The notes below the pieces were generated by a model. That model worked only from the letters and a program-made list of their open reading frames with translations. It made no database searches and was not told where the DNA came from. Source: Parcubacteria group bacterium ADurb.Bin326 (lineage in GTDB: Bacteria; Patescibacteriota; Patescibacteriia; 2-01-FULL-39-33). From it: 64,000 bases of DNA. Below, piece by piece: positions 13,804 to 53,638 of the stretch. The stretch's first letter is position 1, and every line of letters starts with the position of its first letter. The translations under genes were made by a program, and so were the position numbers. The stretch spans positions 3,818 through 67,817 of the forward strand of contig MWBE01000017.1 in the NCBI GenBank assembly GCA_002068915.1. The letters run 5' to 3'.

Positions 13804-13832
13804 TTGACAATTTATCAAATTTATACTAATCT
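13804..13832 (+). promoter_or_regulatory. candidate promoter (TTGACA ... TATACT/TAATCT, suboptimal spacing) for the GC-rich zinc-ribbon gene, followed by a strong SD AAGGAGG
   Basis: TTGACA at 13804-13809. Possible -10 hexamers at 13823-13828 or 13827-13832. AAGGAGG lies 8 nt before the ATG at 13887. Confidence 0.35.
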
Positions 13833-13886
13833 ATTTTAGATAGTCAGTTGTCCTTTCCATAAACATCAACTAAGGAGGATTGTGTC

Positions 13887-14366
13887 ATGAGAGCGACTCG
13901 AAACAACTCGGGTGAAGCCAAGGAAGTAAAAGAGGCCAGAAAGCGTCTACACCAGATGCGCGGTACTGGCTTTGTTCTGACCCCAGACGCCGCCAAGCTG
14001 ATTATGACGGCCGGAGGCCCGACCTTTAGAACAGTTAGTGGCGGCTATCGTTGCAACCAGACCGGAGAGAAGGTGGGGCGAGGCAGCACCGAGAACTACC
14101 GCCAACGAGTGTACGGACTGGCGGCTCCGCCCAAGCCGGTCGTAGTCCAAACGAACGCTTCGGCCAGCTCTTCTAGGAGAACGGTCCAATCGCACATTCC
14201 GGAAATTGACATCACCAGCCCTGACGTCTTTATACGTTGTCCAAACCCGCTCTGTGAAGTTGGGATCGGCTATGCCAATCTCATGCTCGAAGGTATCGGG
14301 GTCTGTCCGAGGTGCAACAAGCAGTTTCGAAAAATCCGACACCCGCAATCAGTGAAAAGGACGTAA
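13887..14366 (+). CDS. hypothetical GC-rich protein with a C-terminal Cys4 zinc ribbon (CPNPLC...CPRC)
   Basis: 159-aa ORF with SD AAGGAGG. Visibly higher GC than flanking genes. The in-frame sequence after the TAA stop (14367-14492) encodes a second CPHC...CQFC zinc ribbon. Confidence 0.55.
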   Translation: MRATRNNSGEAKEVKEARKRLHQMRGTGFVLTPDAAKLIMTAGGPTFRTVSGGYRCNQTGEKVGRGSTENYRQRVYGLAAPPKPVVVQTNASASSSRRTVQSHIPEIDITSPDVFIRCPNPLCEVGIGYANLMLEGIGVCPRCNKQFRKIRHPQSVKRT

Positions 14367-14520
14367 CCCAGTCCAACCGGAAACATCAACTGCCCGCACT
14401 GCTATGAACGAATCGCCCACATTGTTAATTTTTCTGATTTTTACTCGACGATTGAGTGTCAATTCTGCCACCGCAAGCTGATCGTCGAGTAGGATACACC
14501 CTGTCCTCCCGACTACACAT

Positions 14521-14562
14521 CCGCCGGCGCGCCACCTAGGCTCGCCGGCTTCTTTTTTTTAT
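14521..14562 (+). terminator. intrinsic terminator (GCCGGCG ... CGCCGGC + T9) ending the GC-rich cassette
   Basis: GC-rich inverted repeat followed by ttcttttttttt. Confidence 0.6.
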
Positions 14563-14612: not shown

Positions 14613-14670
14613 TAATTAAAAAATCACCAAAGCTCCGCGAACTGGATTCGAACCAGTAACCTACCGGTTA

Positions 14671-15218
14671 CACTTATCTCTGACTTTCATCAAAGGGTGG
14701 ACTATATCATTACCTTTTCCAGTCTATTGGATTAAGGTATCAGGCGCTTCGGCCCGCCTTTAACGGCGGAACTACTCCCCAAAGGGATAGTCTCTGAACC
14801 TTCCCCTGAAAGGGGCTTGGCTGCGGATTACCATATCCTTGCGGACTTAGGCTTCCCGCAATTCACCTGATTATCATTCCAAAATTTCTTTCGGAAGCTG
14901 CGTGGAGCCGGAATGTAATTCTCTATGACAATTAGCACATACTAACAAGCATTTATTAATCTCTTGAATGACTTTATCCCAAGATCTTGAAATCCTTTTG
15001 AGGAGACGCCAAAATCTTTTTTATTGCCATCCAAATGATGGAATTCTAATGCTTGCACGCATTTACTGTAGCCACAGATTTCACACTTGCCGCCTTTATA
15101 TTCCAAGGCCTTATCCCTTACGGCTTTACGCCTCTTGGACACTGCCTCAATCAAATATTTACGACGGTCGGCATATTTTCTATTATCTTTAGTCATAACT
15201 TTTGATAACAGACGGTTC
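14671..15218 (-). mobile_element. group I self-splicing intron (~548 nt) in the tRNA-Asn anticodon loop, carrying an HNH endonuclease ORF
   Basis: On the minus strand the classic core elements are read directly: P AATTGCGGGAAG (14852-14863), Q AATCCGCAGCC (14819-14829), R GTTCAGAGACTA (14788-14799), S GATATAGTCC (14699-14708). P3 ATCAGG/CCTGAT. Candidate IGS GCAGC pairs with exon GCUGU with a terminal U-G. Omega-G at 14671. Confidence 0.8.
14942..15196 (-). CDS. intron-encoded HNH-family homing endonuclease (CEICGY ... EFHHLDGNKKD)
   Basis: The ORF track shows 14942..15238, but its first 7 codons lie in the tRNA 5-prime exon. The likely start is the internal Met at 15196 (MTKDNRKY...). C-x2-C plus HH..N HNH motif. 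Confidence 0.55.
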   Translation of the reverse strand: MTKDNRKYADRRKYLIEAVSKRRKAVRDKALEYKGGKCEICGYSKCVQALEFHHLDGNKKDFGVSSKGFQDLGIKSFKRLINAC

Positions 15219-15338
15219 ACAGCCGGTTGCTCTACCATTGAGCTATCGCGGAACTCTAGTGATTTTTATGTACTTTAATGACGTTAAATATCTTAACAAA
15301 TTTTTCTGGCTAAGTCAAGCCAAATTTTCTGTGGAAAA

Positions 15339-28101: not shown

Positions 28102-31071
28102 TTATTTCAACAAGAAACTAACACCGAAATATTTATCCGAATCGGCTTGAGTAGAAAATACGGCCTTATTGTCATAAAATTCAACATCTTCCGGATAGTT
28201 TATTGCGGGACTAAAGTTCTGCGGATAAACTACCTCAGAAGTTATTTGATCGCGACTGCGACCCGATTGTTTTTGAAGCAAGACGCCATAGCTGGCAACC
28301 TCCGAAGAAAACATGGAGGCGACAGAGTTTACAAGGCCTTTGGGGCTATCTGATCTTCTGACTTTAAACGGTAGCTTATAAACCAGAAGCATCTTCTGCG
28401 TTTCTCCCGGACCGACTACTGACCAGTTAGAAAACACTGTTTTACCATTCTCCTGATAAATCTTAGTTCCTGTTTTTTCATCCTGAATTCCAAAATCCTC
28501 GTTTATTATTTCTTTCTTGTATTCCAGATCTTCTTCAAGTTTTTTGAAATCACCCGCGCCAAAAGGCTTGAATCCCGAAACAGAAATTAACTCGCTACCC
28601 AACGGAACATAGACACGGATATAGGAATTATTAGCTTGATTGGTAAAAAAATCATCAGTTGGTCCAAAATGACTACGCTCAATCAATACATGATCAATTA
28701 TTGATCCGTCTGACTGAATTTCGGCTCGATGCCAAATCTCTTGCCTGATAACGTTATCTGTTTTGCCTCCTCCCAAGTTAGTAGTGATCACGCTCAGATA
28801 ATCATTGTTTGATCCTTGGTCCTTCAATTGTCCAGCGTAACCGTTATCCAAAACAAACTGCTGTAATTGCTGATCAGCAAAATACATCACCACATCTTTT
28901 TCTCTTAAGCCATTGCCAATCGCCTCTGACAATGGCAAGACGCTTTCCGGCTCCACCGTCAAAAGCTTTTCCATTATCTTGGGAGCGAGTTCCGCCAAAA
29001 TCTTTTTTGGTTTAGTCTTGTCTTTGGCTTCCAGCTCTATGCTTTTCTGTAATTCATATTCATAATTTTCAATACTGATAGTCTTGCCATAATTTTCTAA
29101 TTTGATTGGTCCGGTAACTTTTAACAATTCCGTCAGCCAATCTGAATTGATAGCAAAAACTCCATCAACCGTAGGTCCGCCGGACTTCTCATAAAACCAT
29201 TTAATATTGGCTGCTGAGGTTGGAAAATCAGGCCACCAGTTTGAATCTTGGAATTCCCAACGACTGGCAACTAAAGACAAAGCCTTGGGCGGGGCAAGGC
29301 GTTCATTGAATCCTGCCCTGACATCATAAGTGCCGCCTTCGGGCAAAGTTATTTTTTCAATCTTTCCATTTTTAAAATCAACTAAAGCAAAACTACCCAT
29401 AAAGCCTCCGGTGGCCCGCATTTCGTTATCGTTTTGAAAGACGAACAGATAACGCTTAAGTTCTCTTTCGCCCAAAACTTTGACGGCGAATTCGGAAGCA
29501 TTCCTCATTTCTTTCATGCTCTCGATAGCCAAAGGCAGACTTTCCTTCAACTTAACAAAACGCTCACGACTATCATCAGGAATGTGGCTGGATGAAACCT
29601 TTTCTGCGTTTTCCTGCGCCAAAATCATTTCCTCAAGCGCCGAGTCCAATTCCAATTTAAAATTGTTTATCTTACTCGAAAGCGATAAATTTGACTCCCT
29701 ATCAGAAAGAATTTTGATCCCCTTAATTAAATACTCGCCAGCCGAAGAAAGTCGCTCCCCCATTTCAATGATATTTTTGCCTGACTTGAAAGTATTTTGA
29801 GCCGGAGCCACTTCCGCCAAAACCGTCACAAAAGACTTAATATCTTCCAATTGATCTTTAGCTGAATTAAAATTCTTATTGGCCTTGGCTAGATTGGCGC
29901 TTGCTTCATCCAAACTAAACGCCTTGAGATCGTCTCCGGCTTGGGACATACTCCTGACGGCTTGTTCAGCCTCGCCCAAAACTTTACCCTTGATTGCGCC
30001 AACTTGATCCACATAAGACATCGCCTTGACTGAAAAAACCAGGGCGAGCATTATCCCTAAGGAAATTGACGCGATAGTCTTCATTTTAACGTTGGGTTTT
30101 TTGAACTCGAAATTACTGAAGAAATCAAGATTGGGCAACCAATCATGCTTGGGCCAAGGGGCTGACGGTTTTTGAATATTAAGCACTACTCCTCGCCTGG
30201 TAAAATTATTCTCCAAGTATTTTTCTCTGACTTCCTTGATGCTGGGCTTGCTATTTCCTTGTTCGACGCCCTGCTTGCCTAATTTGTTTAAGGACTGATT
30301 CTCGGATAACAAATCAGAAATAGTCGGCTCATAGGTTGCGGTTGTGGCTGTAAATTTTTGCCTGAATTTCTCCAAAGAGACGTCGTCTTCTTTCTTATCA
30401 ACAACATCGATTTGGGGCTTACTATCAAGCCAAACCGTCTCATCCTTGACAAAGGGCTTGGATAAATACCATTTAGCCAAAAGAAATGAAACTCTTGCCA
30501 GCTGATAAAGTTTAACTGTTTGTCGCCACAAAAAAACAAGAAAATTAATAAAAAATATCTGTTCCAGTAATTCCTTGTTTTGTTTAGAGATAAGTTGATG
30601 CGGCAATTCCCGATTTATCGCGGGACCGGTAGAAAATAAATCTTCAAAATAATTTTTGACTCTCTTTAGGGCGATAACGATTTCGCTCTTATCAAGCTCC
30701 CAAAAAGAAAAAAATCCTATTTTTTCCAGCCATTCCCCTGCCGGCAACTGCGCATAGGATATTTCTTTGACTCTGGGAGCGACAAATTCTTTTTCCGGAT
30801 GCTTAGACTTAGAAAGATCAAGCAAAAATGGAGAGTGGTACACATCTAGCGGATGGTCAGCGATGCTGATTTTAAAAGTCTTTTTATCTTTTTGGTCTCC
30901 AATCAATTCCAAGGGTTCTGCCTTATTTTCTAAAGAGTTATCAAACAAAACATCGGCCGCGTCACGGCCTAACTTAGACTTTTTTAGAGTTGTGGCAGAC
31001 TTTTGAACGGCGTTTTTTTTCTTTGTCGTCGCCTTCGGTTTGCCAACAGATGTTTTTCTCTTAATTGCCAC
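28102..31071 (-). CDS. DUF4012 domain-containing membrane protein (cell-envelope associated)
   Basis: 989-aa ORF with a Lys-rich N-terminus, one TM, and a segment YLFVFQNDNEMRATGGFMGSFALVDFKNGKI that resembles the DUF4012 core. Confidence 0.5.
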   Translation of the reverse strand: MAIKRKTSVGKPKATTKKKNAVQKSATTLKKSKLGRDAADVLFDNSLENKAEPLELIGDQKDKKTFKISIADHPLDVYHSPFLLDLSKSKHPEKEFVAPRVKEISYAQLPAGEWLEKIGFFSFWELDKSEIVIALKRVKNYFEDLFSTGPAINRELPHQLISKQNKELLEQIFFINFLVFLWRQTVKLYQLARVSFLLAKWYLSKPFVKDETVWLDSKPQIDVVDKKEDDVSLEKFRQKFTATTATYEPTISDLLSENQSLNKLGKQGVEQGNSKPSIKEVREKYLENNFTRRGVVLNIQKPSAPWPKHDWLPNLDFFSNFEFKKPNVKMKTIASISLGIMLALVFSVKAMSYVDQVGAIKGKVLGEAEQAVRSMSQAGDDLKAFSLDEASANLAKANKNFNSAKDQLEDIKSFVTVLAEVAPAQNTFKSGKNIIEMGERLSSAGEYLIKGIKILSDRESNLSLSSKINNFKLELDSALEEMILAQENAEKVSSSHIPDDSRERFVKLKESLPLAIESMKEMRNASEFAVKVLGERELKRYLFVFQNDNEMRATGGFMGSFALVDFKNGKIEKITLPEGGTYDVRAGFNERLAPPKALSLVASRWEFQDSNWWPDFPTSAANIKWFYEKSGGPTVDGVFAINSDWLTELLKVTGPIKLENYGKTISIENYEYELQKSIELEAKDKTKPKKILAELAPKIMEKLLTVEPESVLPLSEAIGNGLREKDVVMYFADQQLQQFVLDNGYAGQLKDQGSNNDYLSVITTNLGGGKTDNVIRQEIWHRAEIQSDGSIIDHVLIERSHFGPTDDFFTNQANNSYIRVYVPLGSELISVSGFKPFGAGDFKKLEEDLEYKKEIINEDFGIQDEKTGTKIYQENGKTVFSNWSVVGPGETQKMLLVYKLPFKVRRSDSPKGLVNSVASMFSSEVASYGVLLQKQSGRSRDQITSEVVYPQNFSPAINYPEDVEFYDNKAVFSTQADSDKYFGVSFLLK

Positions 31072-31161
31072 CTTCTGAATTGTTTTAGTTAAAAATATTA
31101 TAACACAAATCCCGCCTGATAAACAAGCGGGACTGTGGATAAGTATTGCTTTAATAAAGAA

Positions 31162-32307
31162 TCATTTTTCCTGATAAATTTTACTGATCTCCTGTGCCAT
31201 CTTTTTCCAAGAATACCGCTTAAGATTGTGATCTCCGGCGGTAATTTTTTGTTGACGTAAATTATCATCCGAAAGCATCAGCTCAATTTTTTCTGCCATC
31301 TCGCCAATGTTTTCCGGGTCAAAATAAATTGCGCTATCACCAAGAACTTCCGGCAAACAAGATCGATCAGAACTCACAACCGGCAAGCCGTAAGACTGCG
31401 CCTCCAATGGAGGCAGCCCGAAGCCTTCAATCAATGAAGGAAAAACATAGAGCTTGGCTTGTCGATAAAGAACAGCCAACTCGCTGTCATTAAGATAACC
31501 GGTAAGAATTACTTTTTCTTTGAACTCTTCGGGAAATGGGCCGGTCGCCTGAGCCATTTCTTCTATCTTTTTCTGCAATTCATTATAGAAGTGATTTATC
31601 TTTCCCACCAAAACTAATTTCAAAGAAGGATTGTTGACGGCAACAATAGCGAAAGCCTCCAATAGCTTTTCTAAATTCTTATGTGGATAAGCTGATCCTA
31701 CATAAAGTAAAAAATCTCCGGGTAACTTTAGACGAGTTAAGACACTTGCAGTATCAGCCCCAGAAACTTCCGGCAGGTCAACGCCTTCGTAAACTGTTTG
31801 AATCTTATCTGAGGTAACCTTAAGTAGATGAGCAATATCTTGTTTGGTAAAGTCGGAGACAGCAATGATTTTTTTAGCCCGACGCGCCGAGCTAGCAACT
31901 ACCAAATCATAAAAAAACAATTTCGTCTTATAAAGCATCGGGTTAAGCGTGGTAGCGCGATGGCTCGGATAATGCGAGATAATCAAGTCATGAATTGTAA
32001 CCACAAACTTGCCACGAAACAACAGTGGCACGTTGAAATGAGTGAAATGCACCAAATCAAGACGATATTTGGCTAGCAAGAAAGGAAAAATTAATTGTTC
32101 ACCCAAACTATAGGCGCGAAAGTCGGCTTTAACTTTCTTAAAATTAGGATTTTGGGGTTGATAATCGTTTATTCCATTGCCATCCAAAAAAACAAAATAC
32201 TCATTGGTAGTATCAATTAACTCCAATTCTTTAAGTAATTGTTCGGTATAGCGACCAATGCCGCCGTGTCTGGTGCCAAAAAGCCGCGCATCAATGCCTA
32301 TTCGCAT
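31162..32307 (-). CDS. glycosyltransferase family 4
   Basis: 381-aa ORF with an N-terminal GIDARLF...GGIGRYT and a C-terminal GT4 E..G.P motif. Confidence 0.8.
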   Translation of the reverse strand: MRIGIDARLFGTRHGGIGRYTEQLLKELELIDTTNEYFVFLDGNGINDYQPQNPNFKKVKADFRAYSLGEQLIFPFLLAKYRLDLVHFTHFNVPLLFRGKFVVTIHDLIISHYPSHRATTLNPMLYKTKLFFYDLVVASSARRAKKIIAVSDFTKQDIAHLLKVTSDKIQTVYEGVDLPEVSGADTASVLTRLKLPGDFLLYVGSAYPHKNLEKLLEAFAIVAVNNPSLKLVLVGKINHFYNELQKKIEEMAQATGPFPEEFKEKVILTGYLNDSELAVLYRQAKLYVFPSLIEGFGLPPLEAQSYGLPVVSSDRSCLPEVLGDSAIYFDPENIGEMAEKIELMLSDDNLRQQKITAGDHNLKRYSWKKMAQEISKIYQEK

Positions 32308-32428
32308 ATATCTTAACTTTTTACTTTATTTAAATTAATCATAGCATAAAATCAATAAAGATATCTAATTTCCCAATTTATTTTATCTAATTTTAGATGT
32401 TTTATTCGATTGTGGGCTGTTTTTACTA

Positions 32429-32457
32429 TTTACAAATATTAAAATGTATGCTATAAT
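32429..32457 (+). promoter_or_regulatory. near-consensus sigma70 promoter TTTACA-N17-TATAAT
   Basis: TTTACA at 32429-32434, exact 17-nt spacer, TATAAT at 32452-32457. A GC-rich transcript region starts immediately downstream. Confidence 0.6.
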
Positions 32458-32562
32458 TAAATAATTGGTCGAGTTGACCAAGATTGGTGAAAATGGCTGT
32501 CCGACCTCGGCTTGGGTCGGCAGCAGGAATAGACCTCTGACCAGAGGCAAGAAGGAGAAAGC

Positions 32563-32758
32563 CATGAAAGAGCAAAGTCGCATGCCGGCACGCCGTCGCA
32601 GCACCGGCGAAAACGTGAGAAAACAAGAGCACCGGCCACACATGATTTTCGCCAGCTATGGTGACGGGGAACGCCCCATAATCATCCGCGAAGGCGACCG
32701 GCCGCAGCCCCGCGTTACCCGCGTCTCCGGCTCCGTTGATCCCGCCAAGGCCACCTAA
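32563..32758 (+). CDS. candidate small Arg-rich protein (64 aa, MKEQSRMPARRRSTGENVRK...), which may instead be part of a structured ncRNA
   Basis: [17 protein letters not shown]. Lies in a short GC-rich island between the promoter at 32429 and the terminator at 32830. The ORF track's longer 32465 start would sit at the transcription start and is unlikely. Confidence 0.3.
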
Positions 32759-32829
32759 CCCCGCAACACCGAGCAGCGTCTCGCCACCGCGGCGTAGATC
32801 TGCCTCCCCGCACTTTTTTTCACCTTCAC

Positions 32830-32867
32830 CCCCACCGCTTGAGAAACGGTGGGGCCATTTTTTTATT
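32830..32867 (+). terminator. intrinsic terminator (CCCCACCG-cttgagaaa-CGGTGGGG + T7)
   Basis: Read directly; preceded by a CCCCGCACTTTTTTT motif. Confidence 0.65.
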
Positions 32868-33975
32868 TCAAAGTTTCAAATATTTGCAATACTTTCTGCG
32901 CCGTATCTTTCCAATCAAACAACTTAACCCGCTCCAATCCCCTTCTGATAAATTCTTGCCTTAGACTTTCATTACTAAGTAGCAATTCCATTGCTCGTCT
33001 GATCTGAGTAATATCATAAGGATCTACCAATAAACCAGCATCAGCCAATACTTCCCCTTGCGAAGAATTAGCTCCCGCGATAACCGGCGTGCCGCAAGCC
33101 ATTGCTTCAACAATTGGCAAACCAAACCCTTCGTAAAAAGAAGGATAAACCAAAATTTGTGCCAAAGAATATAATGCTGGCTTATCTGTTTCATCGATAT
33201 AACCAATTAATTTAATTCTCTGATCTTGCGCCGCCAGCACCTTAACTCTATTATTCTTCCAGCCACTAGCTCCGGCAATCACTAATGACGCCTTAGTATC
33301 TATTTTGACAAAAGCCTTAATAACACTAATCAAATTTTTGCGTGGCTCTAAAGACCCGAGGGACAGAATAAAATTATCCGGCAAACCATATTTTTTCTTG
33401 ACCTTATCTAGCTCTGTTGCGTCATTAATCGGCTGATAAGCTCGACCGACTCCCAGTAAACAAACATGAATCTTTTCCGAATTAACCCGCGCCAAATCAA
33501 TCAAATCCTTTTTAGTATTTTCCGAATCAGCGACAATGGCGGCGGCTCTTTCTAATATCTTATTTCTAAGTATCAGTTTGTGCCACAACCGTTGCTTAAA
33601 AGTAAAAAACTCCGAATAAATCAAAAAAGACAAATCATGGACGGCTACAACATGCCCGCACTCAGACGAAAGAGAAGCGAAGTGAAGATTGGGAGAAAAG
33701 AAAACATCGCATCCGCCAATCAACTTATCTAACTTAGGCCAACCTAAAAAATTGAGAGATAGATTAAAAAGCTTATTGGGATAACGAAAACCACGCCAAG
33801 AGACATTGGGATAATCAAAATCTGGCAACTTTACGGATTTGGAGGAGTTATAAAACAAGACATATTCGTTTTGCCGATCTAATTCAAATAATGCCTTCAA
33901 TAAATTGAAGGCATACCAAGAAACCCCGGAATATTGCTCGTCCATCAAACAACGAGCATCGATGCCAATTTTCAT
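32863..33975 (-). CDS. glycosyltransferase family 4
   Basis: 370-aa ORF with a GT4 C-terminal domain (YEGFGLPIVEAMACGTPVIAG). Confidence 0.8.
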   Translation of the reverse strand: MKIGIDARCLMDEQYSGVSWYAFNLLKALFELDRQNEYVLFYNSSKSVKLPDFDYPNVSWRGFRYPNKLFNLSLNFLGWPKLDKLIGGCDVFFSPNLHFASLSSECGHVVAVHDLSFLIYSEFFTFKQRLWHKLILRNKILERAAAIVADSENTKKDLIDLARVNSEKIHVCLLGVGRAYQPINDATELDKVKKKYGLPDNFILSLGSLEPRKNLISVIKAFVKIDTKASLVIAGASGWKNNRVKVLAAQDQRIKLIGYIDETDKPALYSLAQILVYPSFYEGFGLPIVEAMACGTPVIAGANSSQGEVLADAGLLVDPYDITQIRRAMELLLSNESLRQEFIRRGLERVKLFDWKDTAQKVLQIFETLK

Positions 33976-35063
33976 GACTGGATTGATTGACTAATATAGT
34001 CTTGAATCTTACGCTTAAAATTGTCTACGCTAAATTGCTCCGCATGAGCGCGAATTGCCAAAGGGTTATAAATATCCTTAAAACGAACCACCCTATCAGC
34101 CAATTCTTCCCAAATCTGCTCATCAAAAAACTCTCCCGTCACTCCGTCTATAATGGTTTCTGTGGCTCCGCCCTTGCGATAAGCAATAACGGGACGGCCG
34201 GAGGCCATGGCCTCGACAGCCGTAATTCCGAAATCTTCTTCTTGCGGATTAATATAGGCAATACAATCACGATAAAGTTCGGCTCTTTTCTCATCGCTGA
34301 CTTTCTCTAGAAATTCAACATTTTTCTTCGCCATCTTCTTGAGGCGCTTCAATTCCGGACCGACTCCAAAAACTTTAAGAGGAATCTCCAGTCTCGAAAA
34401 AGCTTTCACCACTAAATCAATTTTTTTGTAAGGCACTAACCTGCCGCCCGCCAGATAATATTTTTTCAGCTGGTTCGAGATACTAAACTTATCCAAGTCA
34501 ACAGGAGGATGAATTACTATACTATCGCGTCCGTAATATTTCTTGATACGCTCAGCAACGGTCTGAGAATTAGCAATGAAATGATCAACGCGATTGGCGG
34601 CCAGACAGTCCCAAGTTCGCAATTTATTCAAAGTCAAAGGCAAGGTTTTTTTGACCAGCTTGTGTACTTTTAATTCTCTGAGATAGTTATGGCTGTCATT
34701 CCAAAGATAACGCGTCGGTGTGTGACAATAACAGATGTGCAATGTTCCCGGCTTAGTAATAACCCCCTTAGCAAAAGAAGAGGCAGAAGAAATTACCAGA
34801 TCATAATCCATCAAGTTTTGATGTTCGGTAGCGGCTGGCATTAGTGATAACCACCACTGATATCGACTAACCCCCAGAGGAAAGCGCTGCAAAAAGGAAG
34901 TCCTAATATCTTTGTCGGCGAAATGTTTGTTGGTATTTTTTCTATCCAAAACCAAAGTAAAAATAGGCGCTTGCGGATAAATCTCGTTAAGCGCTTTGAG
35001 TACTTGCTCAGCTCCCCCGTCCTGAACCAGGTGATCGTGAATTAAAGCTATTTTGGGCGGCAT
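33972..35063 (-). CDS. glycosyltransferase family 4
   Basis: 363-aa ORF with a GT4 C-terminal domain (EDFGITAVEAMASGRPVIAY). Confidence 0.8.
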   Translation of the reverse strand: MPPKIALIHDHLVQDGGAEQVLKALNEIYPQAPIFTLVLDRKNTNKHFADKDIRTSFLQRFPLGVSRYQWWLSLMPAATEHQNLMDYDLVISSASSFAKGVITKPGTLHICYCHTPTRYLWNDSHNYLRELKVHKLVKKTLPLTLNKLRTWDCLAANRVDHFIANSQTVAERIKKYYGRDSIVIHPPVDLDKFSISNQLKKYYLAGGRLVPYKKIDLVVKAFSRLEIPLKVFGVGPELKRLKKMAKKNVEFLEKVSDEKRAELYRDCIAYINPQEEDFGITAVEAMASGRPVIAYRKGGATETIIDGVTGEFFDEQIWEELADRVVRFKDIYNPLAIRAHAEQFSVDNFKRKIQDYISQSIQS

Positions 35064-35120
35064 AATAATGCCATTATTTTAAATGATTTAAATAATTTAA
35101 GCAACACCTTAATAATAAAA

Positions 35121-36128
35121 TTAAATTGAATTCTTATAATATCCCCTATTATTTTCTGGCAACATCTGAGCAATTTGCGTCATTAGCCAATCAGTATTGT
35201 TAAGCTCGCTATTATTCTCATCAAAAGTAACAGCCTCTCCCACCTTCAATATTTTTCCTCGTCCAGATTCTTCAAAAAAAGAGGTTGGCAATATTGGCAA
35301 CTGCTTGCCGGTTAACTTTTCATATTGTGAAGCGACCAATTCCAGTCCTCTATAAGCCTGCTTCATCTCTGGTTTCTCTTGGGTAAGTGACTGGGGTTGC
35401 AGCCACAACCCTTCGGGAAACAAACACATTGCGTCTCCGCGAGACAATACCGCAACTGATTGCCTGACAAAATCCGTATCGACCCGCAGTCCGCCACGAT
35501 CTTCTTGCGCGCTTATTTCTTGAAAAACTTTCTTGCCCACGATACCCTGCCTTTCTTTGGCGGCGTACTTTTCTTCTTTGGATAGATTAGACAAACTTTC
35601 TTGGACAGGAATAGCCTTGATAGCTTTCAAAAAACTTCTAGCAAAAAATGAATTTTTCCACCAAATACTTTTGCCAATGATTGGATGCGGATTAAAATCC
35701 TTAAATGTTTTCAGAAGCGCCTGAACATCGCCATTACCAAAATGATTACAAACAACAACAAAGGGGCCTGACTCTGGAATATTCTCCTTATTCCTTAATT
35801 CAAATCTTACGCTTCCGGACCAAAGATCCAAAAATAAATTAGAAACCAAAGACTTTTCTTTTTTTAAATAATCCGGCAAATAACGGCTTTGATAATCAGA
35901 AATCTTCCGGCTTAATGATTCACCATTTGAGAAATCGGTTGATGGCCCTTGTTTTATTGAATCAATTTTTTTCCTAGTTGCCTCAATCTGTTCGACAACA
36001 TCTTCTGGACTATCAGATTCCAATACTTCCGAAGACTCAATTTGATCTGACTGGTAAGATTCTGTTCCGGATGCGTCCTCTGGACTGATTGGGAACCTTT
36101 CATTACCTTGATTTTTTTCTCCTATCAT
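35121..36128 (-). CDS. lysophospholipid acyltransferase (PlsC/LPLAT family) with an acidic N-terminal extension
   Basis: 335-aa ORF with the H-x4-D motif (VVCNHFGNGDV) and a downstream FPEG motif. Confidence 0.6.
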   Translation of the reverse strand: MIGEKNQGNERFPISPEDASGTESYQSDQIESSEVLESDSPEDVVEQIEATRKKIDSIKQGPSTDFSNGESLSRKISDYQSRYLPDYLKKEKSLVSNLFLDLWSGSVRFELRNKENIPESGPFVVVCNHFGNGDVQALLKTFKDFNPHPIIGKSIWWKNSFFARSFLKAIKAIPVQESLSNLSKEEKYAAKERQGIVGKKVFQEISAQEDRGGLRVDTDFVRQSVAVLSRGDAMCLFPEGLWLQPQSLTQEKPEMKQAYRGLELVASQYEKLTGKQLPILPTSFFEESGRGKILKVGEAVTFDENNSELNNTDWLMTQIAQMLPENNRGYYKNSI

Positions 36129-36215
36129 AGATTTATTTTATTGTTCTTATGATACAATAAATAAAAAGGCATTACAATTTAATCAAATCAGATAAGGATG
36201 ACTCCCCCCGCTTGC

Positions 36216-36256: not shown

Positions 36257-36329
36257 GCGCCTATAGCTCAGTCGGTAGAGCAACAGCCTTTTAAGCTGAT
36301 GGTCCCAGGTTCGAGTCCTGGTGGGCGCA
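36257..36329 (+). tRNA. tRNA-Lys (anticodon UUU)
   Basis: GCGCCTA-TA-GCTC-AGTCGGTA-GAGC-A-ACAGC-CTTTTAA-GCTGA-TGGTC-CCAGG-TTCGAGT-CCTGG-TGGGCGC-A. Canonical cloverleaf, anticodon loop CUUUUAA. Confidence 0.9.
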
Positions 36330-36495: not shown

Positions 36496-38058
36496 ATGAA
36501 CATAAGTAGTTTTGTCAAAGAACTGGCAAAGATACTGCCGAAGAATCTACTCAGTATGCAAACGGATGACAGGAGGGCCGTGGCAAGTCGAGTAATATTC
36601 TCCGGAGACTGGGAGAAGCAAGAACAGACAACTCTACTCAGTAACGACCCTGTTGTTATTGATGGGCTGTATGAGAAAAAGAGTCTTCGTTTGTGTGGCC
36701 ACTTCGGGAGAAAAAGAGAGACAACCGAAATTCTCAATTTCATATCCGCTCTCCTCTTCGAGTCCAAGCAGATGATTTTTGGCCCGCTAGACTTCAAGGC
36801 TAAGGTGACGGTTTGGTGGAAAAAAGTAGAAGACTTCTTTCAAGAGACTGACATGGCAGATTTATCCGCCATTAACGTCAAAGCAGTCTTCTACTCCGAA
36901 GATCCTACTAGGCCGAGGTTCGGCCTAACCCAAAAAGAGCACCGTTTTGAAGCCCAGCTCAGCCGTTTGCCGCTTGGAATGAAAAAACTCGTAGTCACTG
37001 CCCAAGGAGATTATGCCCCCATACTTCAGAAGAAGGCTGAGGGCAGTGTGACTATAAGTTTATCGCCGGCTGACACTGAGAGATTGTTGAAGGCCTCTGG
37101 CGGGATGTCACGAAGACTGCTTGAAGCGGCACTGAAGCCGCAAAAAAAGCGAGTCTGCCGGTTCAATTCGGAAAGCGGCATGATGGAAGAGGGCTGGATT
37201 GAAGAAATCACCCTCCTTATATCAGCCTCGAGGCTTCCCTACTACGAAGGGGTCTTGAGACGCAAGCTACCGGTCAATTCCCAGGTCGGCAACAAAAGAA
37301 GCAGCATTGCCAGGATCACCAGAATCTTCTGGCGCACCAGTACTGCGCTGTCGGCAATGAAAGAGCTGATTGGCCAACTTGATTGTTTGGAAACAACAAC
37401 AGTCTTCGACCGGCCAATAATAACTTTGGCCGGGGCCAAAGCCTTCCTCGACCAACTAATGGCGGCAATTGAAGAGACTTGCATCTCCGGTCGCATGTTT
37501 TACGGAGTCGCCAACCGACAACTTAGGCTCTTTGCCCTAAAGCAAGCGGAGGAGCAGTTTGGCAAAGACGTAGTAACCAAACGAGAAGACATGGAAGAGC
37601 GCCAATACGTAGAATTCCTCGAAGAACTGGGGTTTATCAAAGGAGTTCAAGCAGAAGAAGGCTCTCTCGATTTCAATTTTAAAGAGAAAAACCTCTTCTT
37701 GTTTCTGCTACAGTCCTACCGAGCTAATCCCGAAAAGCTTGTCGCCCGATACCGGGAACTCTACGTCAACAAGCCACCAAAGACCCTTATTTGGGGTGAA
37801 GCCGTTCTCGACGCCTCCAAGCTGAAGAGACTACAATTGCCGTCTCAGGCGAAAGTCAGCGGTCTAAGCCTCAGAAAGATTCCAGGAACAGGAGAATCGG
37901 AAGAGTTGATTGTTCAGAATGAATTGCCCTTTAAGGAAAACGATTTTTCCTTTTGGGCAAGAATTCCAATCGAGTCTGAAGGCACCCCGCTCCTGGAACT
38001 GCAGAACTACGCTTGCGAAGCCCTGGGAATCACTGTTGCGAATGCGACTGGCGCCTGA
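36496..38058 (+). CDS. hypothetical protein (520 aa), compositionally distinct from neighbours, immediately downstream of tRNA-Lys
   Basis: Long ORF with moderately elevated GC and no recognised motifs. Candidate promoter TTGACA (36390-36395) with a weak -10. Own terminator downstream. Confidence 0.5.
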   Translation: MNISSFVKELAKILPKNLLSMQTDDRRAVASRVIFSGDWEKQEQTTLLSNDPVVIDGLYEKKSLRLCGHFGRKRETTEILNFISALLFESKQMIFGPLDFKAKVTVWWKKVEDFFQETDMADLSAINVKAVFYSEDPTRPRFGLTQKEHRFEAQLSRLPLGMKKLVVTAQGDYAPILQKKAEGSVTISLSPADTERLLKASGGMSRRLLEAALKPQKKRVCRFNSESGMMEEGWIEEITLLISASRLPYYEGVLRRKLPVNSQVGNKRSSIARITRIFWRTSTALSAMKELIGQLDCLETTTVFDRPIITLAGAKAFLDQLMAAIEETCISGRMFYGVANRQLRLFALKQAEEQFGKDVVTKREDMEERQYVEFLEELGFIKGVQAEEGSLDFNFKEKNLFLFLLQSYRANPEKLVARYRELYVNKPPKTLIWGEAVLDASKLKRLQLPSQAKVSGLSLRKIPGTGESEELIVQNELPFKENDFSFWARIPIESEGTPLLELQNYACEALGITVANATGA

Positions 38059-50594: not shown

Positions 50595-50993
50595 TTATTT
50601 AAGAGTAACGGTAGCGCCAGCTTCTTCCAATTCTTTCTTAATCTTTTCGGCTTCTTCCTTCTTAGCACCTTCTTTGACCATCTTAGGAGCTCCATCAACC
50701 AAATCCTTAGCTTCTTTCAAGCCCAAGGCAGTGATAGTGCGGACAACTTTGATGACATTGATCTTCTGATCGCCAGCGGCGGTAAGTTCAACATCGAAAG
50801 AATCCTTCTCCTCAGCGGCAGCAGCTCCGGCTCCACCGGCAGCCATCATGACTGGGGCAGCAGCAGAAACACCAAACTTCTCTTCTAAAACTTTGACCAA
50901 CTCAGCCAAATCAATGACTGACAATTTGTCGATTTGTTCTACCAAAGATTTGAATTTCTCCGGTACCATAACCTCTTTTTGTTCTTCTGACAT
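50595..50993 (-). CDS. rplL: 50S ribosomal protein L7/L12
   Basis: 132-aa ORF with an Ala-rich hinge and the C-terminal domain ([11 protein letters not shown]...ATVTLK). Confidence 0.95.
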
Positions 50994-51017
50994 ATTTTTT
51001 TCCTTTTAGTTAATAAT

Positions 51018-51521
51018 TTAGGCGGTAGAGCCTTCTTTGCTCTCCTTGATCGCGTTGATTACGCGAGCCAAGCCGGACATCGGATTGGAGATACAACCGA
51101 CAACCTTGGCCAGCAACTCCTTTCTAGAAGGAATTTTGGATAACTCGGTAACACGACCGGCGTCGATGAATTTGCCTTCCAGCACTCCTCCGACGAACTT
51201 CACTTTGTCGTTTTCCTTGGCAAACGAAGCTAAGATTCTAGCTGGAGCAACTTCATCCTCATAAGAGAATAAAGTGGCGACCTCGCCCTGCAGCTCGGCT
51301 GCAGCAGCATCTTCAAACCCTTTTTCTGAGAGAACTTTCTTTAGCAAGGTTTTCTTAGCCACCAAATAATCGATGCCTTCCTTGCGACAGTTGTCTCTAA
51401 GTTTGTTGATGTCCTTAACTTCTATGCCGGAAAAGTTGAACATGACAGCGGACTTCATTTGGCCAACTTTGTCGGACAAAGTTCCCAAAATGGCAGTCTT
51501 CTGCGCTTTTGTTTTTGGCAT
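51018..51521 (-). CDS. rplJ: 50S ribosomal protein L10
   Basis: 167-aa ORF immediately upstream of rplL, with an L10 N-terminal domain. Confidence 0.95.
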   Translation of the reverse strand: MPKTKAQKTAILGTLSDKVGQMKSAVMFNFSGIEVKDINKLRDNCRKEGIDYLVAKKTLLKKVLSEKGFEDAAAAELQGEVATLFSYEDEVAPARILASFAKENDKVKFVGGVLEGKFIDAGRVTELSKIPSRKELLAKVVGCISNPMSGLARVINAIKESKEGSTA

Positions 51522-51690
51522 AGCTTGATTGTTAATTTTCTAAACTAACTTCCGTTATACAAAAAAACTGCGTTTCCGCAGATCTTAAAATGGCTAAAAA
51601 GCCGTTTCTCGGCAGGTCTTATCGGGGTTTTTCTCCCCAGCCCACTGTCTACGAAAGTTATGCTCTAATTATAGCAGAAAGCTAAAAAAA
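51522..51690 (-). promoter_or_regulatory. rplJ promoter (TTGACT-N16-TATAAT) and ~150-nt structured leader containing a terminator-like hairpin (CTGCG-gaaa-CGCAG + U7): candidate L10-leader attenuator
   Basis: Read on the minus strand. L10-leader autoregulation by attenuation is established in Firmicutes; assignment here is by position and structure only. Confidence 0.4.
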
Positions 51691-51787
51691 GTCAAATGAT
51701 TGATGGTTGAGGCTGTAAAAATGGGACTGATTTTAATTAAAATTATCTAAATCTAAATAAAATATAATAAATTATATCGCACATCTC

Positions 51788-51816
51788 TTGACAAAATATC
51801 TAATGTGTGCTATAAT
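51788..51816 (+). promoter_or_regulatory. exact consensus sigma70 promoter TTGACA-N17-TATAAT driving a ~170-nt GC-rich structured leader
   Basis: TTGACA at 51788-51793, 17-nt spacer, TATAAT at 51811-51816. Confidence 0.65.
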
Positions 51817-51988
51817 TATATATTGTAATTGAAACAATTCAGTTGCAACGGTCCTTAACAACTAGGGAACGAAAGCGGGTACGGCTCTCAGATAGCTGTG
51901 CTCGCAGGATCTATAGGAAGCGACTTCGGCGGCAGTGGAGCTGCTTTGAAGTCGTAAGAATGGCACAACCCAAGAAGGAGAACTTGCC

Positions 51989-53491
51989 ATGAAGAAACTT
52001 AGTGTTGTATTGATGATGGTTTTTGTGGTTTTCGGCTGCCTGGTGCTTACCGGCTGTAACAAGCCTGGCGACAACAACGGCGAGAACCCGCCGGCCGTGG
52101 TCAACCCTGAAGGCGAAACGCCCGAGGGCGAAGACGGGCCGACGATCCGCCCGGTTGTGGAAGGTGAACCTGAGACCCCTGCGGTCGAGGGTGAACCGGA
52201 AGTGCCTGCCGAGGGCGAGCCCGAAGTGCCGACGGAACAGTCCGGCAGTATCGTTATCACCGGAGTCCTTTTCAAGGGACTGCCGGCAACCAAGGCGCTG
52301 AGCGCGGACGAGAACGGACTGACAGCTGAAGAGCTGAGTCAGGCGTTCCTCGAAATCGCTGCGGCGACCGATGGACTGGAGTTGGTGCTTGACGGTGACG
52401 GCGAGAATGATTACAAACGCTCCTGCACTGTGCAGAGCGACGGGTCATTCTTCTTGCGCCTGGCAAGTGTTCTGCCCGGCGATTACAAGCTGGAGCTGAA
52501 CACCATGTCCAGCACCACCGGCATCAACGGCTGGGGCAAATCCGAAGTCGATGTGAAAATCGAAGCCGGCAAGGTCACCCAGGTGACCGTCGCCCTCGAG
52601 CGGATGGAAACGTTCGCAATCCTCGGATACTTCAGCGATGAACTCGCGGAAGATGAGGATTGGGGTTCGTTTGAAGCCTTCCTAGTCGACACCGCGGGAA
52701 ACAATTATACCGCGGTCCTCGCCAAAAACGATGCCGACGAATGGGTGATCAACGGGTACAACCTGCCTGTCTCGGCCATCATTGGGGCCTTGAAGATCAC
52801 GGGCGACGACATCGAAACCATGATGTTCGCCGTCGACACGACGAGCACGGCTTTCGAGAACGGCTACTCGTTATTCGACGTGATCGACAACGAAGCCATG
52901 CTCGCCCTCGTATCCGACACTGGAGACCTTGAAGTCACCGTCCCCCCGATTGATCTGGGTGAAGGTGAAGACGAAGAGGGCGAAGTTGAGAGTGAGGACG
53001 AAACCGAAGGCGAAGGCGAAACTGAAGGCGAAGGAGAAGTTGAAGATGATAACTCCCTTCCCCTGGTCGCCGGCAAAGCGACGGTCGGGCTGATCATCGA
53101 AACCGATGGCTCAGTGACGATGCTCGCCGACGCCAACGAGGGCTTCAGCCTGCCCCTGTCCTTCTACGGCCTCCCCGCTTCGATTGCCTCGCTCGGCGTC
53201 GAGGTTTACTACCTGGATGACGCCCACGACCCCGACGGTGCTTGGGAAGATCGCCAAGTCGTGGCTTGCTCCGGACTGCCGTTCGAGGCAACCGTGAACA
53301 TCTTCGATTCCCCGGTCTGGCGTTTCCAAGTGGTTGCCAACTCCGTGGACATGTGGGCCGGAAACTATGCCAACTCCGTGAAGTTCCATGTCGTGGTCAA
53401 GTACCGCGATGCTGAGAATTGGACAACACTGAGTCAGTCCGATGACGGCAGTGGCAACATGGCGTACCAGGTCGATACCCGGACGCTGTAA
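51989..53491 (+). CDS. GC-rich acidic lipoprotein (500 aa; lipobox LVLTGC; Glu/Pro-rich linker repeats; Asp/Glu-rich segments)
   Basis: [19 protein letters not shown]. Signal peptide plus Cys lipobox. Composition strongly GC-rich compared with neighbours. No catalytic motif recognised. Confidence 0.55.
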   Translation: MKKLSVVLMMVFVVFGCLVLTGCNKPGDNNGENPPAVVNPEGETPEGEDGPTIRPVVEGEPETPAVEGEPEVPAEGEPEVPTEQSGSIVITGVLFKGLPATKALSADENGLTAEELSQAFLEIAAATDGLELVLDGDGENDYKRSCTVQSDGSFFLRLASVLPGDYKLELNTMSSTTGINGWGKSEVDVKIEAGKVTQVTVALERMETFAILGYFSDELAEDEDWGSFEAFLVDTAGNNYTAVLAKNDADEWVINGYNLPVSAIIGALKITGDDIETMMFAVDTTSTAFENGYSLFDVIDNEAMLALVSDTGDLEVTVPPIDLGEGEDEEGEVESEDETEGEGETEGEGEVEDDNSLPLVAGKATVGLIIETDGSVTMLADANEGFSLPLSFYGLPASIASLGVEVYYLDDAHDPDGAWEDRQVVACSGLPFEATVNIFDSPVWRFQVVANSVDMWAGNYANSVKFHVVVKYRDAENWTTLSQSDDGSGNMAYQVDTRTL

Positions 53492-53520
53492 ACGCCACCC
53501 CCCTACCCCGCACTTTTACT

Positions 53521-53558
53521 CCCCCCAGCTACTGAAAGCAGCTGGGGGTCTTTTTTTT
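53521..53558 (+). terminator. intrinsic terminator (CCCCAGCT-actgaaagc-AGCTGGGG + T8), preceded by a CCCCGCACTTTT motif
   Basis: Read directly. Confidence 0.7.
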
Positions 53559-53638
53559 CTTCATTTTTATAGCTATAATCAGGGGTCGACTTTTAGAGTA
53601 AAAAATGGTAAGCTATAAACATTATAACTATAAGAATT

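Follow-up and report, generated by a model that had tools for sequence, protein, structure and literature searches.

A GC-rich, moron-like candidate cassette for a small basic protein between two glycosyltransferase genes of a Parcubacterium

Background

Morons, known from the work of Hendrix, Juhala et al., are reportedly autonomous promoter-ORF-terminator units located between two genes of lambdoid prophages. Integron gene cassettes carry an attC site, have an integron integrase nearby and are usually promoterless, and a DGR is recognized by a template repeat and a nearby reverse transcriptase, with sequence differences that are confined to template adenines and do not include indels. At the RNA level, dual-function and 3′-UTR-derived sRNAs are exemplified by SgrS/SgrT, RNAIII/hld and SR1/SR1P, and mRNA stabilisers that combine a 5′-terminal stem-loop with a strong Shine-Dalgarno (SD) sequence are exemplified by ompA, aprE and the Stab-SD of cryIIIA. 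In the Flavobacteriia, an SD-blind lineage, rpsU, the gene for bS21, is among the very few genes that bear an SD (PMC9976891, PMC7797042, PMC13000453), and a subgroup of the Parcubacteria has been reported to be without the 16S anti-SD motif (PMC9297842).

Here we describe a short GC-rich unit in the genome of Parcubacteria group bacterium ADurb.Bin326, within a 64-kb stretch of DNA that was analysed as a whole and is referred to below as the window. A sequence-only reading of this DNA had proposed either a small Arg-rich ORF or a structured non-coding RNA (ncRNA). The unit resembles a moron in that one small ORF is equipped with a strong promoter and an intrinsic terminator of its own, is atypical in composition and lies between genes that are adjacent in relatives. 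The present unit is, however, located among core chromosomal genes of a CPR bacterium, and has no phage or viral match in a phage collection, PHROGs or IMG/VR. With rpsU of the Flavobacteriia it has in common that a gene for a very basic protein of ~64-70 aa has a strong SD and the other genes, here those of the window, have none. The product, however, resembles bS21 neither in sequence nor in predicted structure, and in this case three unrelated ORFans carry an SD, all of them compositional outliers.

Results and discussion

Composition and transcription signals

The unit is housed in the 555-nt gap between the start of GT381 and the stop of GT370, two minus-strand genes that encode GT4 glycosyltransferases (Table 1). 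The first ~155 nt of this gap are very AT-rich (23-32% GC); from 32464 to 32862, the GC content is 58-69% versus a window mean of 42%, and the GC-rich stretch of ~400 nt claimed previously is thus readily apparent. The promoter had been described as an exact match to consensus. Its hexamers and their spacing are present where they were reported but, with TTTACA as the -35 element, it is one mismatch removed from consensus in this strain; all relatives have a perfect TTGACA at this position. Sites with at most one mismatch to TTGACA-N17-TATAAT occur 5 times in the 64 kb, with 0.44 expected.

The predicted leader contains three hairpins, both of those quoted in the sequence-only reading among them. 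Between the two alleles of the unit (see below), the leader is 8% divergent versus a pS of ~0.4, and hairpin 2 has changed in ways that allow wobble pairing on the plus strand, a combination that suggests that the leader is under constraint. A hairpin only a few nt from the predicted 5′ end, with a strong SD, is reminiscent of the ompA, aprE and cryIIIA stabilisers, although only by analogy, the transcription start of the unit being itself a prediction. At the 3′ end, the stem CCCCACCG...CGGTGGGG (32830-32854) with its T7 run is as strong a terminator as had been claimed, and this run and the stop codon of the convergent GT370 (32863-32865) overlap. Taken with the GC content, the promoter and terminator support the prediction of an autonomous plus-strand transcription unit with a foreign-like composition. 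The AT-rich spacer also has a promoter-like site on the minus strand that could drive GT381 after the splitting of the operon.

Table 1. Positions in the window of the unit, its flanking genes and the two further cassettes
Feature	Position	Strand	Details and basis
GT381, gene for a 381-aa GT4 glycosyltransferase	31162-32307	-	
Promoter-like site in the AT-rich spacer	32338-32367	-	TAGATA-18-TG-TATGAT; consensus match only
Sigma-70-type promoter	32429-32457	+	-35 TTTACA, 17-nt spacer, TG-extended -10 TGcTATAAT; score 11/12
5′ leader, ~100 nt	32464-32563	+	three predicted hairpins; fold z -1.8
Leader hairpin 1, 5′-proximal	32465-32481	+	UUGGUC-gaguu-GACCAA
Leader hairpin 2	32496-32524	+	GCUGUCCGACC...GGUCGGCAGC
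Leader hairpin 3	32533-32548	+	CCUCU-gacc-AGAGG
12-mer around the SD	32548-32559	+	CAAGAAGGAGAA; common to the cassette at 51971
Shine-Dalgarno sequence	32552-32557	+	AAGGAG, canonical, invariant, 6 nt 5′ of the ATG
Small ORF, 64 aa in this strain	32564-32758	+	SD, ATG, in-frame indels, pN/pS
3′-UTR hairpin	32771-32806	+	GCAG-C-GUCU-CGCC / GGCG-U-AGAU-CUGC; fold analysis
Single-stranded C/U-rich linker	32806-32829	+	contains CCCCGCACTTTT at 32806-32817
Intrinsic terminator	32830-32864	+	8+2-bp G+C-rich hairpin, then T7; dG -15.8, z -3.2
GT370, gene for a 370-aa GT4 glycosyltransferase	32863-33975	-	
Third cassette	13805-14555	+	TTGACA promoter, AAGGAGG SD, 159-aa zinc-ribbon ORFan, terminator
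Sister cassette	51788-53560	+	perfect TTGACA-17-TGcTATAAT promoter, 170-nt leader, SD 12-mer, CCCCGCACTTTT, terminator

Insertion between formerly adjacent genes

Three more distant relatives have orthologues of GT370 and GT381 side by side and in the same direction, separated by 18 nt in L003/L023 (58-60% amino acid identity), by ~5 nt in L028 and by ~114 nt in L024, which upholds the earlier claim that the unit interrupts an otherwise contiguous glycosyltransferase operon. The arrangement with the unit recurs in assemblies that are independent of one another and derive from several runs and MAGs (L002, L016-L019, L021, L042, L043), and the junctions of the insert are therefore real and not an assembly artefact. 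The window arrangement is also carried by GCA_022705865.1 (contig JAKJDR010000001.1), from the same species as ADurb.Bin326. The L022 contig, which has a GT370 of 66% identity, extends only slightly beyond the stop of this gene. As a different terminator hairpin, with GGCCCGCACCTTTTTT directly before it, follows GT370 at this contig end, a similar unit is probably present in L022 too. At the 5′ ends of L016-L018 and the 3′ end of L022, several independent assemblies stop at an edge of the element, either close to where promoter and leader meet or within the CCGCAC motif, suggesting strain heterogeneity or a change in coverage there. The L017 sequence begins with 22 nt that are unrelated to the promoter.

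The neighbours within 10 kb on either side are housekeeping genes (glycosyltransferases, tgt, a sigma factor, dnaB and mur genes), and the unit lies outside any prophage. Searches with blastn of a phage collection and a plasmid collection gave no match to the unit, and IMG/VR, searched with the proteins of all three cassettes described below, also gave none. The failure of these phage, plasmid and IMG/VR searches to provide a donor or transfer vehicle counts against an arrival by horizontal transfer. Three types of mobile or variable element were considered and rejected. The unit is not an integron gene cassette, as it has its own promoter, there is no integrase domain within 10 kb on either side, and its sole 3′ inverted repeat is the terminator. 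An IS/MITE-type element would have terminal inverted repeats and a target-site duplication, but the only inverted match between the two ends is 23/33, lies in AT-rich DNA and has E=13, and the window has no second copy of the unit. A DGR variable region does not fit with the presence of only one copy of the unit in the 64-kb window, or with alleles that differ by indels and by all types of substitution.

A small ORF under weak purifying selection

The ORF had been assigned to 32563-32758; its ATG is at 32564. It encodes 64 aa in this strain, 77 aa in strains in which the TAA is CAA, and 64 or 76 aa in strains with a second, diverged allele (allele B). A first protein search with the ORF product returned self-hits only, and the members of its protein cluster, which include a Parcubacteria bacterium ADurb.Bin326 protein, are strain variants. 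An exhaustive phmmer search of 1.84 billion representatives then identified P0012, a 64-aa protein with 63% identity (E 2e-13) that is encoded at the identical position between the glycosyltransferase genes in L042 and L043. A third version of the unit is present in L021, and L042, L043 and L021 together represent the diverged allele at this site. A profile search for further homologues recovered only the two known alleles, and there are no homologues outside the species cluster among 5.8 billion proteins. The protein search that had been suggested for the 64-aa peptide thus returns same-locus alleles, and otherwise the product is an ORFan. The weak phmmer hits P0013, P0014 and P0015 were considered as evidence for a widespread repeat family and discarded; the two that were examined, P0013 and P0015, are translated tandem DNA repeats from unrelated contigs, for which the number of repeats inflates the score, and these two have weak per-unit scores and no similarity at the DNA level.

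Alignment of the DNA sequences shows next to no variation in the promoter, leader, SD and ATG, and CAAGAAGGAGAAAGCCATG, the stretch that includes the SD and ATG, is the same in all five distinct sequences; the ORF itself is ~25% divergent between the alleles. All indels within the ORF are multiples of 3, namely +3 and -3 in the core of both allele-B sequences and -18 in the L042 tail, and the reading frame is open in all variants for 64, 64, 76 or 77 aa. The SD-preceded ORF on the plus strand is the only ORF of either strand that remains open in all variants. Nei-Gojobori (NG86) estimates give a dN/dS of 0.41 for the ORF, at a dS of 0.63, indicating weak constraint, and an omega of 0.03-0.10 for the flanking glycosyltransferase genes, at a dS of 0.44-0.48. 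When all six frames were compared, in what is, as for dN/dS, in effect a test of one allele pair, pN/pS was significantly reduced (0.47; Fisher p=0.007, or ~0.04 after correction for six frames) only in the SD-preceded frame. The values for the other five frames are 0.7-1.4 and not significant.

An invariant SD and ATG, indels that preserve the frame and a depletion of non-synonymous changes in this frame alone favour the protein-coding reading, and with it the small Arg-rich ORF of the two alternatives initially offered. That an identical SD context precedes the 500-aa lipoprotein-like ORF at 51989, described below, also counts in its favour. Several observations argue in the opposite direction. 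The product is an ORFan, with no fold and no family match, its C-terminal third and stop position (64, 64, 76 or 77 aa) vary between strains, and the constraint is weak, with a dN/dS of 0.4 that is effectively from one allele pair. GC2 exceeds GC3 within the ORF, and the antisense shadow frame is also stop-free (pN/pS ~1.4). The UTRs are better conserved than the ORF, which could indicate a function at the RNA level, and the SD might not work as assumed if the 16S rRNA of the host is without an anti-SD.

The predicted product, which contains the segments PHMIFASYGDGERPIIIR, EGDRPQPR and VSGSVDPAK, has a pI of ~11 (11.1) and a GRAVY of -1.2. No match was found in profile searches of Pfam, PHROGs, NCBIfam, PADLOC and PDB; the AlphaFold (AF2) model is without secondary structure, with a pLDDT of 60, and the protein is predicted to be disordered. 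Type I toxin peptides are short, hydrophobic membrane peptides, and were rejected as the product has no hydrophobic stretch in addition to its low GRAVY and high pI. Ribosomal protein bS21 was also rejected, there being no Pfam or NCBIfam match at E<=1 and no helices in the model. That the protein acts by binding nucleic acid, possibly including its own conserved leader, is a tentative guess and one more easily wrong than right.

We consider it probable that the unit is an autonomous, horizontally acquired, moron-like cassette that encodes a small, basic, disordered protein restricted to the species cluster. The cassette would have been inserted between two formerly adjacent glycosyltransferase genes, and its near-consensus, extended -10 promoter would start a monocistronic mRNA of ~400 nt. 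The 5′-proximal hairpin and strong AAGGAG SD should favour the stability and translation of this mRNA, which would encode an intrinsically disordered protein of 64-77 aa with a pI of ~11, and the transcript would terminate, after a C-rich 3′ UTR and at the intrinsic terminator, precisely where the convergent GT370 has its stop codon. We infer that the unit is transcribed and translated, and that it arrived by horizontal transfer.

Two further GC-rich cassettes in the window

A GC scan of the window revealed two further islands, at 51989-53491 and 13887-14366 (Table 1). Each is on the plus strand, surrounded by minus-strand genes, and has a consensus promoter and a terminator of its own. The first is part of a cassette of 58-64% GC between rplJ and murA, and encodes a 500-aa lipoprotein-like ORFan with acidic EGEPE repeats and a GC3 of 0.71. 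This protein has only two relatives, a fragment with 86% identity and an orthologue with 72% identity, the latter encoded by GC-rich DNA at the same site in L020. The L020 cassette has the same 5′ design, UUGACC-uuuuu-GGGUCAA, and a different terminator sequence. The ORF at 13887-14366 has a GC3 of 0.61 and extends to 201 aa where an in-frame TAA is replaced by CAA; 14 of the strain differences in this cassette cluster within 57 nt. The GC3 of the present ORF is 0.66-0.68, compared with ~0.40 for native genes. Translational selection was rejected as the cause of the high GC3, given that the GC3 of the gene for L7/L12 is only 0.42.

An AAGGAG sequence precedes the start codon of 3 of the ~51 genes in the window, and these are exactly the three GC-rich ORFan cassettes; the native genes have A/T-rich upstream regions and no SD. 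The promoters of the present unit and of the 51989 cassette have 76% similarity over 38 nt, and the two cassettes have in common two exact 12-mers, CAAGAAGGAGAA at the SD and CCCCGCACTTTT before the terminator, that occur nowhere else in the window. The CCCCGCACTTTT motif recurs in front of the terminator at 53506, in the L020 orthologue of the 51989 cassette and at the end of L022, with the CCGCAC-U motif kept before terminators that are otherwise different. In this strain, the ORF of the third cassette and the present ORF both have an in-frame TAA (14364-14366 and 32756-32758) at a position where other strains have CAA (Gln). The contexts are alike (ACG TAA CCC and ACC TAA CCC), and in both cases the downstream frame is intact, for 41 codons that encode a second zinc ribbon (14367-14489) and for 13 codons, respectively. 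These TAA codons could be two independent nonsense polymorphisms resulting from C-to-T pressure, or could be something programmed.

It is conceivable, although doubtful, that, in a Parcubacterium with no other use of SD sequences, the three cassettes make up a gene class of their own, either a family of transferable expression cassettes or a specialised-translation regulon. As transferable cassettes, they may be built from common 5′ modules (a TG-extended consensus promoter, a 5′ hairpin and CAAGAAGGAGAA) and common 3′ modules (a C-rich tract, the CCGCAC-U motif and a terminator). As a regulon, they may have an SD that is read only by a subpopulation or state of the ribosomes, by analogy with rpsU in the Flavobacteriia.

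Alternative explanations

Comparison of the region 31000-36200 with L021, L042 and L019 revealed 100%-identical blocks, for example 33849-34249, beside blocks of 73-90% identity, a mosaic that indicates frequent homologous recombination in the population. As L016-L019 have the window-type ORF allele on flanks that match those of allele-B strains, recombination breakpoints fall in the UTRs. The last ~88 nt of the unit have one difference between the alleles (at 32856, 2 nt past the terminator stem), as against 25% in the ORF, and this raises the alternative of a dual-function RNA, an mRNA that encodes the peptide and has a conserved 3′ end that is also a regulatory RNA or a protein-binding module. 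Dual-function and 3′-UTR-derived sRNAs resemble the unit in being short transcripts with a small ORF, in which conservation is higher in the UTRs than in the coding sequence. The layout of the 3′ end, with a hairpin, a 23-nt unpaired C/U-rich linker and then the terminator, and the retention of CCGCAC-U in front of different terminators (51989 cassette, L020 and L022) would be consistent with this alternative. However, the near-invariant tract, 32775-32966, includes the last 104 nt of GT370, and because it extends into this gene, and the locus is a mosaic, the invariance of the 3′ end may reflect a shared recombination tract. For the same reasons, the view that selection alone accounts for the invariant 3′ UTR was rejected. 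No target or pairing partner was identified, and the window contains no sequence recognized as a complementary target. RNAalifold proposed that the SD pairs with a stretch of the 3′ UTR that resembles an anti-SD; this was rejected, as the duplex energies are no better than those of shuffles in three of the four cassettes evaluated. A second function of this kind is, in our view, unlikely.

The unit might instead be decaying foreign DNA, a transcribed remnant with an ORF that is no longer, or never was, functional. Decay would account for a disordered ORFan product with a variable stop position, for the TAA that this strain has in place of CAA both here and at 14364, and for the weakened -35 element. 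It would not account for an ORF, SD and ATG that are kept across alleles at a dS of ~0.6, for indels that are all in frame and a pN/pS below 1 only in that frame, or for a high GC3 that persists with no drift toward the composition of the host, and we regard decay as decidedly unlikely.

The second of the initial proposals, that the ~400-nt GC-rich transcript is a folded ncRNA and the ORF is incidental, did not withstand closer analysis and is very unlikely to be correct. In genomes that are AT-rich, GC-rich islands frequently prove to be RNA genes and, in this case, both the leader and the 3′ UTR contain stable hairpins (z -3.2 for the 3′ UTR) and are far better conserved than the ORF, with changes in leader hairpin 2 that are wobble-compatible on the plus strand. 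The Rfam search suggested earlier, however, gave no match across 31000-34500 even at E<=1, and no tRNA or tmRNA was detected at the unit by ARAGORN. The only Rfam matches at the gathering threshold in the whole window are a group I intron and a tRNA, both elsewhere. The predicted fold of the full plus-strand transcript is no better than those of shuffled sequences (z -1.26); the minus strand has a z of -3.3 but lacks promoter and terminator logic. RNAalifold, applied to the five distinct sequences, found compensatory change in 3 of 113 pairs and an unfavourable covariation term of +1.08, in a test with limited power as there are only two diverged alleles. Allele B disrupts many of the pairs predicted for the central 200 nt, only the UTR hairpins being kept, and this central region is ~25% diverged, has in-frame indels only and has codon-phase-specific substitutions. 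A stem that would sequester the AUG (AUGGCU/AGCCAU) also had to be abandoned, as one base is G, A or C depending on the strain and its partner is fixed, so that the change is uncompensated.

A role at the level of the locus, in which the strong convergent promoter and the terminator uncouple or disturb transcription of the GT370-GT381 operon and the ORF is secondary, would fit with the splitting of a formerly contiguous operon, with a terminator that overlaps the GT370 stop such that transcription continuing beyond GT370 would proceed antisense to the unit, and with the new promoter-like site that precedes GT381, but leaves the conserved SD, the ORF and its in-frame evolution unexplained, invokes a terminator that works only on the plus strand and transcription that is itself predicted from sequence, and is barely plausible.

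Other features of the window

The anticodon loop of the gene for tRNA-Thr(UGU), at 14632-15252 on the minus strand, is split by a 548-nt group I intron (Rfam RF00028, 101 bits, 14678-14954), and default ARAGORN misses this host tRNA. A 98-aa ORF within the intron (14942-15238) has an HNH endonuclease-like motif, CEICGY...EFHHLDGNKKD, as read by eye. Directly downstream of tRNA-Lys (36257-36329), a 520-aa ORF on the plus strand (36496-38058) has no family match and a moderately raised GC3 of 0.54, and could be another acquired gene. The rplL and rplJ genes (50595-51700, minus strand) are not preceded by rplK-rplA, the 51989 cassette and murA being present instead, as also in L020. This layout may fit with the Parcubacteria subgroup that lacks uL1 (PMC9297842). 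The hairpin-rich leader that precedes rplJ has no Rfam match.

Implications

By itself, the unit is one more lineage-restricted small ORFan gene. It provides a clean example, however, showing that the GC-rich, hairpin-bearing islands of AT-rich genomes are not necessarily RNA genes. The recurrent motif before the terminators, CCGCAC and then a run of U residues, is pointed out here and, if the cassettes do form a gene class of either kind, CCGCAC-U would be a new signal acting at the RNA level or in recombination. The presence of SD sequences only on three foreign-looking cassettes in 64 kb offers a handle both on how genes enter and are expressed in reduced CPR symbionts and on whether CPR ribosomes still read SDs.
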